From the NCBI GenBank assembly GCA_000002445.1, contig CP000071.1:800001-864000 (forward strand): a stretch of 64,000 nt of DNA. Direction: 5' to 3'. Position 1 is the stretch's first letter. Every line of letters starts with the position of its first letter. Positions 42,913-46,791 of the stretch are shown in pieces. The DNA comes from Trypanosoma brucei. Its lineage: Eukaryota. Both the position numbers and the translations under genes were made by a program. The notes below the pieces were generated by a model. The model made no database searches and was not told the origin of the DNA. It worked only from the letters and a program-made list of their open reading frames with translations.

Positions 42913-45900
42913 ATGCCGCTATACAATATCACTATTCATCCGCTGAAGCTTGCTGCGCACTTCTGCAAACAGGGTTGTTCATACGTTGTCGTTGTTAACC
43001 GTAAGGGGGTGGAGCTGGCGACAAAACCCGCCATGTGTACCGTTGCCGATGAGGTGGCCTTCAGCACACCGGCGGAACTGAACCAGACCCGGACATTTCA
43101 ACTTGCCTTCGACTCACCCAAGGACCGACGTATGATCCAGTTTGCTATGTACGACGTTACCAATCCGAAGCATAGCATAAGGATCACAGGATTTGAAATC
43201 CCACTTGCGGGGATGTGCAGTGTGCTTGCCGGTGAGTCCATATGCGAAAGGAAGGCTGTCTCCTTCCGCATTTCTGGAAGGCCGGGGCGGTTGGACGTCA
43301 TTTTCCGCATGCACCCCACTACGAGCCCCGTACCCCCTCTGACGTTGTATGCGGGGCCGGCAACAGGTTCTGGAGGAAGCAGCTCACCAGTGGAAACAGT
43401 TCGCCTCCCCGCGCGCACCGTGGAGGTGCTTAAGAAGGTTGGTGTACTACCAAAAGATGTGGAAGAAGTTGAGGTGGACGCTGTCATCGCCCAGGAGGTT
43501 GTTGTGCGCACTTCCATGTTGTTTCCCAGTGAGGCCGAACTGCGTGAACGTGTGATGACGCTCGAACGTGAGGTAGCCCAACAGGAGTATAGCGTGCGGT
43601 ATGCTTCAAAGGACAGTGTGTCTTCAGGTTCGGCCGCTTGTGTTGCGCTGCGTAGCGAGCTTCAATACTGGAAGGACACTGTAGAAAGAGTGAATCTACA
43701 GTCAGCGCAAGAAACAGGGATTGCGTTGTTGCTTAAAGCTGGTGAAGAGGGTGAACACGACGACGGCAGTCGCGCCCTCATAGCCGATGTTGAAGGGCAA
43801 CTGGAGGAGGCGAGGAGAGAGCTAAAGACCATAGAAAGATCCCAGAATGATGAAGAGTTGAACACGAAATTAATTCCACTTCTCGGGCAGGTGGAGCAGT
43901 TGGAGGAGCTACTGGAACACCTCCGGAAGGAAGTACATGTACCACCCAAGACTGCGGGATCTAGTGAGAAAGCTGACGTCGTAGATCAGTGGGAACAACT
44001 TGCGCGCGAATTATTCGACAAGGAGCTGATGGTTGAACAACTTATGCACACAGTTCTTACACTCAACCAACTTCAGTTTGAACCATATCCTGCCGCAATT
44101 GAGATGGGCGCTGTTGGGGATACGCCATGTGAACTACAGTTCGTGCGTGACAACAAGAGACAGTTGAAGAACCTTCCTCAGGTCCCCACTCCTAAGCAAG
44201 CCACCGATCTCGCAGCAGCCTCCGGCGGTCCCACCAGTGACAACCTGCTGAACGATCTCTTCGGTTGTCCATCTCCCCCAAAACCAGTTCCACAACCGAC
44301 GGTACAGGCCGACGAGGTGACATCACAACCGCACTTCGAAAGAGAAAACGGGGGGCTTCCAGGCGCACCATCTGTTTTTTCTAGCGGTGTGGCCCCAATT
44401 TGGGGGCAAAAGCCAGTGGGGGCACCCCCCCAAGATGACGCTATGCAACCAGCGGCCACGGCAAACACTCTAGACACCACCGATGGCAAGGTCGGCGACA
44501 GCATGGCGTTCGAAAAGAAAACAACTGAACCGCAAATTATGGTCTCCGCCGGTCTTGCTGCAGCCGCCGCATCACCACCTGACACCCAAAACGGACAGCA
44601 GCTATCATTCCCATTTGACTCGAAGCAGCAGGGTCCAACACAGGGACAGCAGCAACCATTCCCATTTGACTCGAAGCAGCAGGGTCCAACACAGGGACAG
44701 CAGCAACCATTCCCATTTGACTCGAAGCAGCAGGGTCCAACACAGGGACAGCAGCAACCATTCCCACTGGGTTCGCAACAGCAGGGTCCAACACAGGGAC
44801 AGCAGCAACCATTCCCATTCGACTCGAAGCAGCAAGGTCCAACACAGGGACAGCAGCAACCATTCCCACTGGGTTCGCAACAGCAAGGTCCAACACAGGG
44901 ACAGCAGCAACCATTCCCATTTGACTCGAAGCAGCAGGGTCCAACACAGGGACAGCAGCAACCATTCCCATTTGACTCGAAGCAGCAGGGTCCAACACAG
45001 GGACAGCAGCAACCATTCCCATTTGACTCGAAGCAGCAGGGTCCAACACAGGGACAGCAGCAACCATTCCCACTGGGTTCGCAACAGCAAGGTCCAACAC
45101 AGGGACAGCAGCAACCATTCCCACTGGGTTCGCAACAGCAAGGTCCAACACAGGGGCAGCAGCAACCATTCCCATTTGACTCGAAGCAGCAGGGTCCAAC
45201 ACAGGGACAGCAGCAACCATTCCCATTTGACTCGAAGCAGCAGGGTCCAACACAGGGACAGCAGCAACCATTCCCATTCGACTCGAAGCAGCAAGGTCCA
45301 ACACAGGGACAGCAGCAACCATTCCCACTGGGTTCGCAACAGCAAGGTCCAACACAGGGACAGCAGCAACCATTCCCATTTGACTCGAAGCAGCAGGGTC
45401 CAACACAGGGACAGCAGCAACCATTCCCATTTGACTCGAAGCAGCAGGGTCCAACACAGGGACAGCAGCAACCATTCCCATTTGACTCGAAGCAGCAAGG
45501 TCCAACACAGGGACAGCAGCAACCATTCCCACTGGGTTCGCAACAGCAAGGTCCAACACAGGGACAGCAGCAACCATTCCCATTTGACTCGAAGCAGCAG
45601 GGTCCAACACAGGGACAGCAGCAACCATTCCCATTTGACTCGAAGCAGCAGGGTCCAACACAGGGACAGCAGCAACCATTCCCACTGGGTTCGCAACAGC
45701 AGGGTCCAACACAGGGACAGCAGCAACCATTCCCATTTGACTCGAAGCAGCAAGGTCCAACACAGGGACAGCAGCAACCATTCCCATTTGACTCGAAGCA
45801 GCAAGGTCCAACACAGGGACAGCAGCAACCATTCCCACTGGGTTCGCAACAGCAAGGTCCAACACAGGGACAGCAGCAACCATTCCCATTTGACTCGAAG

Positions 45901-46791
45901 CAGCAGGGTCCAACACAGGGACAGCAGCAACCATTCCCACTGGGTTCGCAACAGCAAGGTCCAACACAGGGACAGCAGCAACCATTCCCACTGGGTTCGC
46001 AACAGCAAGGTCCAACACAGGGACAGCAGCAATCATTCCCATTTGACTCGAAGCAGCAAGGTCCAACACAGGGACAGCAGCAACCATTCCCATTTGACTC
46101 GAAGCAGCAAGGTCCAACACAGGGACAGCAGCAACCATTCCCATTTGACTCGAAGCAGCAAGGTCCAACACAGGGACAGCAGCAACCATTCCCACTGGGT
46201 TCGCAACAGCAGGGTCCAACACAGGGACAGCAGCAACCATTCCCACTGGGTTCGCAACAGCAGGGTCCAACACAGGGACAGCAGCAACCATTCCCATTTG
46301 ACTCGAAGCAGCAGGGTGTACCGCAGACCCCGTCAGTGCCAGGACAACAGCAGCAATATATGGCCCCTCCAGAGACACCTGTTCCTCGGTATGTGCGACG
46401 TCCACTAGCGTCGGGAGTGTCTCCCTTTGCTCCTTTTATTAACATTCCCCTCGTAGCACGTGCTTGTCCCCTGGATATTTACCTTGATGGGCAGACCCCT
46501 ACACGCGGCACAGAGATTACCATTCAGAACAATGGTGGTTTTGACATTACTATTGGTGGGGTGGAGCTGCGGCAGGAAGACATGACATCAACTTCGCCGC
46601 ACGCAGGTCAAACTGTTCCCATACGTCGCTGGCCACAACAAATGCACGTACCGCGCGGCGGCGGTCGCGCTACATGCATTATTGCGCTGCACCCAAGTTA
46701 TGCTCGGGGGAGTTCGCTCATCCTCCTGGTCGTGGTGTATGTGCTGAATGAGGGTCGTTATACACCTTTTGCCGCCCGTTTTCCAGTATAG
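42913..46791 (+). CDS. Large repeat-containing protein. It has an N-terminal globular region, a coiled-coil segment, ~34 tandem 17-aa Q/P-rich repeats, then a C-terminal region.
   Basis: 1292-aa ORF. A heptad-like charged region (residues ~200-330) comes before the repeat array. The repeat unit is [17 protein letters not shown] with the variant [17 protein letters not shown]. Confidence 0.8.
44590..46316 (+). repeat. 51-bp tandem repeat array, ~34 copies, in frame inside the CDS
   Basis: Unit ccattcccatttgactcgaagcagcagggtccaacacagggacagcagcaa. Two unit variants alternate irregularly: gactcgaag (FDSK) and ctgggttcgcaa (LGSQ). There are synonymous cagcaa/cagcag differences. All six frames are open across the array because the unit has no stop codon. 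Confidence 0.95.

Follow-up and report, generated by a model that had tools for sequence, protein, structure and literature searches.

What does a long and nearly perfect tandem repeat contribute to the protein in which it lies? The question is raised by a 64,000-nucleotide stretch of the Trypanosoma brucei genome (contig CP000071.1, positions 800,001 to 864,000 of the forward strand; hereafter the window, from whose first letter all coordinates are counted), where a 51-bp unit is repeated about 34 times within an open reading frame (ORF) of 1292 residues. The array-bearing gene is TbCAP141 on T. brucei chromosome 8, and the array probably makes up most of the intrinsically disordered linker in this clathrin-associated protein, where it would supply length and bulk to the endocytic coat, its exact sequence being probably unimportant. 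Gene identity, architecture, composition and variability across species come from our own analysis, clathrin association, localisation and essentiality come from the literature, and the role of the array is what we infer.

The mass predicted from the ORF, 141,108 Da, led to TbCAP141 as a candidate name. Tb927.8.2820 had been described as TbCAP141, together with its cloning primers, by Manna et al. (2017, J Cell Sci; PMC5399782), and all four published primers match the window without a mismatch: the forward primer (42913..42938) lies at the ATG, i.e., residue 1, the full-length reverse primer (46771..46788) reaches the last codon (residue 1292), and the reverse primers of the '1-440' and '1-165' constructs (44214..44232 and 43388..43407) end exactly on residues 440 and 165. 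These four exact matches essentially exclude a different gene at the locus, and the neighbouring genes (a 3099-residue inositol trisphosphate (IP3) receptor, then RBP10) also fit T. brucei chromosome 8. The locus is already published and functionally characterised and is no new antigen or element; as a published gene in the reference genome of the parasite, it adds no new kind of system. The parts of the gene are:

42913..46791, + strand: complete coding sequence of TbCAP141 (Tb927.8.2820), an ORF of 1292 residues, 141.1 kDa, pI 5.4, confirmed by the primer matches
42913..43317, + strand: predicted C2-fold beta-sandwich in the published membrane-targeting region (residues 1-135)
43405..44082, + strand: alpha-helical, coiled-coil-like region (residues 165-390), with long helices in AlphaFold2, conserved across orthologues
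44245..44265, + strand: LLNDLFG, a DLF-type candidate clathrin-binding motif (residues 445-451), upstream of the array
44395..44409, + strand: conserved peptide PIWGQ (residues 495-499)
44593..46326, + strand: 51-bp (17-residue) tandem array of 34 units (residues 561-1138), 22 F-type and 12 L-type, with degenerate first and last units
46360..46788, + strand: predicted C-terminal beta-sandwich domain (last 143 residues), strongly conserved

According to the published work, clathrin heavy chain co-purifies with TbCAP141, which localises to clathrin structures at the flagellar pocket and is essential, its depletion by RNA interference blocking endocytosis while broad, flat coated pits remain (PMC5399782). 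Residues 1-165 were found to confer plasma-membrane targeting in mammalian cells, the 'folded N-terminal domain' was placed at residues 1-440 (ending at 44232), the C2 domain was given 'very weak support', and the C-terminus was called disordered, as part of a 'large disordered region' (PMC5399782). Removal of the disordered region left the flagellar-pocket localisation unchanged, and the disordered regions of TbCAP141 and TbCAP80 were proposed to aid membrane bending by molecular crowding; neither a tandem repeat in TbCAP141 nor a conserved C-terminal beta-sandwich is mentioned (PMC5399782). The CAP141 orthologue of T. cruzi likewise co-isolates with clathrin (PMC4977521).

The AlphaFold2 model of residues 1-420 has a beta-rich N-terminus followed by an alpha-helical, coiled-coil-like part, which matches the published layout, and lends good support to an eight-stranded C2 beta-sandwich fold for the N-terminal module; searched against Pfam, the N-terminus gave no C2 match at E <= 1 and no ENTH/ANTH match. 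Two short conserved peptides lie between this module and the array, LLNDLFG, which is seen as [LFI]L[DN]DLF in nearly all orthologues, and PIWGQ, of which P[VI]W[GA] is kept in most orthologues at the equivalent place. The last 143 residues are modelled by AlphaFold2 with a predicted local distance difference test score (pLDDT) of 86.4, and adaptin/GGA ears, PapD-like chaperones and MSP/ASH domains come out as structural neighbours, all with similar scores. This C-terminal part matched no Pfam family and nothing at E <= 10 in a sequence-profile search of the PDB, and an exhaustive profile search retrieved only CAP141-like proteins and one distant full-length homologue (P0030); three weak profile matches (P0029, P0031 and P0032) were discarded as unrelated, repetitive proteins of bacterial type. 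Judged from the predicted structure, a conserved folded C-terminal domain has been overlooked in the literature. The disordered region links the C2 and coiled-coil module to a C-terminal beta-sandwich, and the array accounts for 578 of the ~740 residues (about 80%) of what had been described as the 'large disordered region'.

At the DNA level, Tandem Repeats Finder reported a single strong array in the window, at 44593..46317, with a period of 51 and 33.8 copies (92% matches, 0% indels, score 2792), in agreement with the original prediction of a 51-bp array of some 34 copies at 44590..46316 within a protein of 1292 residues. We cut the array into codon-phased 51-bp units starting at 44593, so that unit 34 ends at 46326. 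Two types of unit had been predicted to alternate irregularly, and this was borne out: 22 of the 34 units are F-type (PFPFDSK) and 12 are L-type (PFPLGSQ), in the order FFFLFLFFFLLFFFLFFFLFFLFFLFLLFFFLLF, i.e., the 33-letter string given previously with a leading F for the degenerate first unit. The claimed homogeneity is equally clear, with only nine distinct unit sequences in total and seven among the 32 interior units (2-33), and with a mean identity of 97.3% between F units, 99.05% between L units and 86.45% between F and L units. Divergence is greatest in the first unit (QQLS for QQQP) and in the last (GVPQ for GPTQ). The sequence on either side is coding, conserved and in the frame of the array, so that the array runs without a break into the N- and C-terminal regions, as the original prediction required. 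Aligned in register, the flanks resemble the unit no more than background; the edges of the array are therefore sharp, and an origin of the array by seeding from its flanks was rejected. Freedom from stop codons in all six frames, which had also been claimed, holds for four frames only, since frame +2 carries 20 TGA codons (in the F units) and one minus-strand frame carries three stops; the long spurious ORFs that overlap the array are by-products of the repeat.

The F and L units differ at six nucleotides, all within 12 bp (unit positions 22-33, four codons: TTT GAC TCG AAG versus CTG GGT TCG CAA), a clustering with P ~0.001. Three codons are changed, each by two substitutions, one replacement and one silent, and the differences are in complete linkage, with no intermediates among the 34 units; the remaining 39 bp of the unit are identical save for one shared G/A site. 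The core might reflect either an old, maintained divergence or one multi-nucleotide event, and no donor for the L-type core was found elsewhere in the window. The shared site, unit position 39, is the CAG/CAA switch that had been taken to mark sub-blocks: the switch itself is real (18 G, 16 A), and all four combinations of unit type and position-39 variant occur, but its clustering is statistically weak (13 runs versus 17.95 expected, P = 0.057). The order of F and L units does not depart from random permutations (19 runs versus 16.55 expected), no block of more than four identical units recurs (P = 0.30 by permutation), and no periodicity in the autocorrelation over unit offsets is significant after correction for multiple tests. 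As the tests of runs, blocks and periodicity were all non-significant, the idea that the duplication history can be reconstructed from these variants was rejected. Diverged end units around a homogeneous interior usually point to homogenisation by unequal exchange or to recent expansion. The near-identical interior, the diverged edges and the occurrence of all four combinations of type and position-39 variant suggest the same here, and the array is probably a lineage-specific expansion that was homogenised by unequal exchange or slippage between units.

As a protein segment the array consists of Q (37%), P (17%), G (14%), F (10%), S (6%), T (6%), D (4%) and K (4%), with P and G together making up 31%, a charged-residue fraction of 0.076 and a net charge of 0. 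Its mean scaled hydropathy (0.318) lies under the charge-hydropathy boundary (0.413), and the segment is therefore predicted to be disordered. Phenylalanines, 56 in number, recur with a fixed period of 17 residues, each unit bringing F-P-F (22 occurrences) or F-P-L. No canonical endocytic motif (clathrin box, W box, NPF, DPF/W, FxDxF, WxxF or gamma-ear motif) was found within the array; the only motif of a canonical type in the whole disordered region is LLNDLFG, which lies outside it. Six repeat units gave no match at E <= 0.001 among 5.8 billion proteins, in a search that was subject to low-complexity filtering and in a collection from which T. brucei proteins are apparently absent. A random-coil scaling estimate of the radius of gyration of the disordered region rises from ~4 to ~10 nm when the array is included.

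To place the array in the evolution of the protein we turned to its relatives. With the 560 residues upstream of the array as a query, 18 database matches were obtained, the weakest at 33% identity, and those named by organism (T. melophagium, T. theileri, T. vivax, T. conorhini, T. cruzi, T. rangeli, Leptomonas, Leishmania and Phytomonas) are all kinetoplastid 'hypothetical proteins', so that, among the organism-named matches, orthologues of CAP141 appear to be confined to kinetoplastids and close relatives. In the trypanosomatid orthologue models the disordered region is Q/P-rich at the same position, and between the LLDDLF motif and the C-terminal domain lie 740 residues in T. brucei versus 225-388 in the complete orthologue models; in the distant homologue P0030 the disordered region comprises ~100 residues. 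Other, mostly short arrays occupy the same position in T. cruzi and T. c. marinkellei (17 residues x ~2-4), T. melophagium (34 residues x 3) and T. conorhini (50 residues x ~1.7), while the repeats of the closest relative (P0001), with units of 18 and 24 residues, extend over at least ~250 residues, in a model that enters other frames of its own repeat. No array was found at the equivalent position in T. rangeli, the Leishmaniinae, Phytomonas or the most distant match (P0018). The T. brucei unit scores no higher against the units of other Trypanosoma species than composition-matched shuffles do (P 0.085-0.98), and homology between them was rejected. Dissimilar units in Q/P-rich sequence at the same place indicate that position and composition are conserved, whereas the unit sequence and the copy number are lineage-specific. 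In several public assemblies the CAP141 models are truncated, split or frameshifted at the repeats (P0001, P0003/P0020, P0004, P0021 and P0022; locus L001); the gene of T. theileri is split into two partial genes, and the T. vivax model has 453 residues.

As conservation extends only to length, position and composition, the most likely contribution of the array is size and flexibility; length and composition, rather than sequence, seem to matter. A flexible, low-complexity segment of ~580 residues would space the membrane-addressing module and LLNDLFG from the C-terminal beta-sandwich and would make the endocytic coat longer and bulkier, which agrees with the crowding proposed in the literature. 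Aromatic residues at regular intervals in a polar, uncharged background could add weak self-association, and such contacts between aromatic and glutamine residues might assist the crowding. Several points weigh against this reading. Uncharged, Q-rich chains with aromatic residues favour a compact or self-associating state over an expanded one, and the composition of the array fits cohesive interactions better than pure steric pressure. The packing of the F/L differences into 12 bp hints at a specificity of the FDSK/LGSQ core that pure bulk does not explain. The comparison of lengths depends on gene models which, in several species, are interrupted at the repeat, P0001, as the closest relative, also has at least 250 residues of repeats, and the copy number is that of a single assembly. 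Moreover, in a construct scored for localisation, TbCAP141 kept its localisation when the whole disordered region was deleted (PMC5399782).

Tandem repeats are common in trypanosomatid proteins, and there is some chance, though a clearly smaller one, that the array is a tolerated product of slippage or unequal crossing-over in a weakly constrained disordered linker, where it would be polymorphic noise and its length would serve no specific function. Such neutral expansion would agree with a disordered region that ranges from ~100 (P0030) to 740 residues across the family, with repeat units that differ by species and are absent in several, and with the random-like order of units; however, the Q/P-rich composition is kept at the exact position across trypanosomatids, the interior variant sites outside the F/L block (three silent, one replacement, too few to test) give a weak hint of purifying selection, and the protein is essential, with a disordered region that has been proposed to be functional (PMC5399782). 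We consider it unlikely that the array, although real, owes its copy number or unit order to collapse or expansion during assembly. Short reads cannot resolve 1.7 kb of near-identical units, a short-read Logan contig of T. brucei (ERR7929156; 99.86% identity downstream of the array) stops exactly at the 3' edge of the array (46325), and the orthologue models are broken or frameshifted at repeats in several assemblies; on the other hand, the array has no indels, keeps its frame and joins two conserved domains, and the irregular order of seven variants looks real and not consensus-collapsed. The ORF also yields the published 141 kDa, though this probably derives from the same reference sequence and is hence not independent.

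Endocytic adaptors commonly have repeated peptide motifs, and the F-type units might be short linear binding sites for a coat partner (for instance the terminal domain of clathrin, a module of AP-1 or EpsinR, or the beta-sandwich at the C-terminus of TbCAP141 itself), with the L-type units as non-binding or differently binding spacers, such that the array would raise avidity in the manner of Eps15 with its DPF repeats or AP180 with its DLL repeats. We regard this as doubtful. F-P-F is indeed regularly spaced and occurs 22 times, the six nucleotide and three amino-acid differences between F and L units all fall in the FDSK core (P ~0.001) and are completely linked, as if two functional states were maintained, and the structural neighbours of the C-terminal beta-sandwich include the peptide-binding adaptin/GGA ears and MSP domains. 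However, FPFD fits none of the known endocytic motif classes tested and is absent from all orthologues, including the T. cruzi protein that co-isolates with clathrin, the repeat units of orthologues have no detectable similarity to that of T. brucei, the conserved candidate clathrin motif LLNDLFG sits outside the array, and the sandwich resembles PapD-like chaperones and other Ig-like folds at least as strongly as it does ears. Just as speculative is a reading of the array as an expansion, in the T. brucei lineage, of a prion-like 'sticker-and-spacer' domain with its phenylalanine pairs 17 residues apart in an uncharged Q/P/G background. Such a domain would drive multivalent, condensate-type assembly of a clathrin coat lacking AP-2 at the flagellar pocket and would tether the conserved, hitherto unrecognised ear-like sandwich to the C2 membrane anchor. 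If this were true, TbCAP141 would be an adaptor of the form C2-coiled-coil-hinge-ear, with a hinge length tuned to the very high endocytic rate under the dense variant surface glycoprotein (VSG) coat. The resemblance to immunodominant repeat antigens of trypanosomatids, to which the original prediction had pointed, proved to be an analogy only, and selection of the array as a B-cell antigen that diverts or dominates the host antibody response is very improbable. Many identical 17-residue units would suit such a role, and, as many trypanosomatid repeat antigens are intracellular, a cytosolic location is compatible with antigenicity, which might arise as a by-product; but TbCAP141 belongs to a coat in the cytosol and has an established role in the cell, and orthologues from non-pathogenic and insect-only kinetoplastids keep the Q/P-rich region. 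Neither the peptide PFPFDSK nor the gene identifier could be linked to serology or repeat antigens in the searchable literature, whose coverage is incomplete, nor was any mention of the array met there; PFPFDSK occurred in none of these papers, and the identifier only in the clathrin paper and in an unrelated one on CTR9 depletion.

Compared with known systems, TbCAP141 resembles epsin/EpsinR and CALM/AP180 in that its N-terminal module is folded and binds membranes and that the long tail behind it is disordered and makes contact with the coat, and the published depletion phenotype, with flat pits, is similar (PMC5399782). It differs from these ENTH/ANTH adaptors in that it lacks an ENTH/ANTH domain (no Pfam match), its N-terminal fold being predicted as C2, in that its tail has one DLF-type motif and no repeated canonical motifs, and in that it ends in a predicted folded beta-sandwich, which they lack. 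Motif repeats or prion-like regions occur in endocytic scaffolds such as Eps15 (DPF repeats), AP180 (DLL repeats) and yeast Ede1, Sla1 and Ent1 (Q-rich domains). The array shares with these a repetitive or Q-rich region of low complexity, evenly spaced aromatic residues and an uncharged polar background, whereas its unit is a near-perfect 17-residue repeat at the DNA level that fits no known motif class. Its glutamine content of 37%, charge fraction of 0.076, zero net charge and 56 phenylalanines with a period of 17 residues recall prion-like, sticker-and-spacer sequences. Cohesive nucleoporin domains of the GLFG type likewise have regularly spaced phenylalanines in uncharged, Q-rich spacers, as does the array, but here the aromatic element is FPF/FPL and the context is the clathrin coat of the flagellar pocket. 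Like the repeat antigens of trypanosomatids, e.g., SAPA, CRA and FRA of T. cruzi, K39 of Leishmania and GM6 of T. brucei, the array is a homogeneous stretch of in-frame DNA that encodes the same short peptide many times over, whereas the known role of TbCAP141 is in endocytosis.

The large ORFs of the window all lie on one strand, as in the polycistronic units of trypanosomatids. Upstream of TbCAP141, the ORF of 3099 residues at 17353..26652 has the domains of IP3/ryanodine receptors (Ins145_P3_rec, RIH, RIH_assoc and Ion_trans) and is presumably, from its position, the T. brucei IP3 receptor Tb927.8.2770. It is followed by an ORF for an RRM protein (28451..29518), which by its position is taken to be RBP10 (Tb927.8.2780). 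Directly downstream of the latter lies a block of ~7 kb (29519..~37000) with 32-41% G+C and many short AT- or T-rich microsatellites, which matches the 3' untranslated region (3'UTR) of RBP10, reported to be 7.3 kb long (PMC8982893); because of this published 3'UTR, a centromere or strand-switch region at 30-37 kb was rejected. The ORF of an XRN-family exoribonuclease (39490..42477) begins 127 residues before the XRN_N domain, which is normally at residue 1, and only one stop codon separates it from a preceding in-frame EF-hand ORF; its true start is probably a downstream ATG. Beyond TbCAP141, a CAF1/PARN-family gene (52053..53813) is followed by a stretch without ORFs of at least 200 residues, in which two tRNA clusters lie (54288..54801 and 58106..58671; Ile, Gln, Val, Lys and Gly, Leu, Thr, Arg), with genes on both strands. 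A cluster of small-RNA genes at 61030..61838 contains:

61030..61255, - strand: 7SL RNA of the signal recognition particle (SRP), with a divergent tRNA-Lys
61366..61439, + strand: tRNA-Lys, divergent from 7SL
61527..61600, - strand: tRNA-Arg, divergent from U3
61696..61838, + strand: U3 snoRNA, with a divergent tRNA-Arg

Trypanosomes are known for this arrangement, in which the tRNA genes lying upstream serve the promoters of small-RNA genes.

A lineage-specific tandem repeat in the disordered linker of a known gene is a common kind of feature, and what the present analysis adds is modest: the tandem nature and lineage-specific size of the array, support for the C2 fold, a predicted folded C-terminal domain and the lack of canonical motifs in the array. 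About 80% of the disordered region of TbCAP141 is one homogeneous and apparently recent array, which in this form is lacking in other kinetoplastids. The array explains the fragmentation of CAP141 genes in many short-read kinetoplastid assemblies, and tags or truncations at the C-terminus of TbCAP141 should allow for the predicted folded domain there. For the endocytosis of trypanosomes, which is independent of AP-2, the array may offer a handle on the relative importance of length and sequence in membrane bending.

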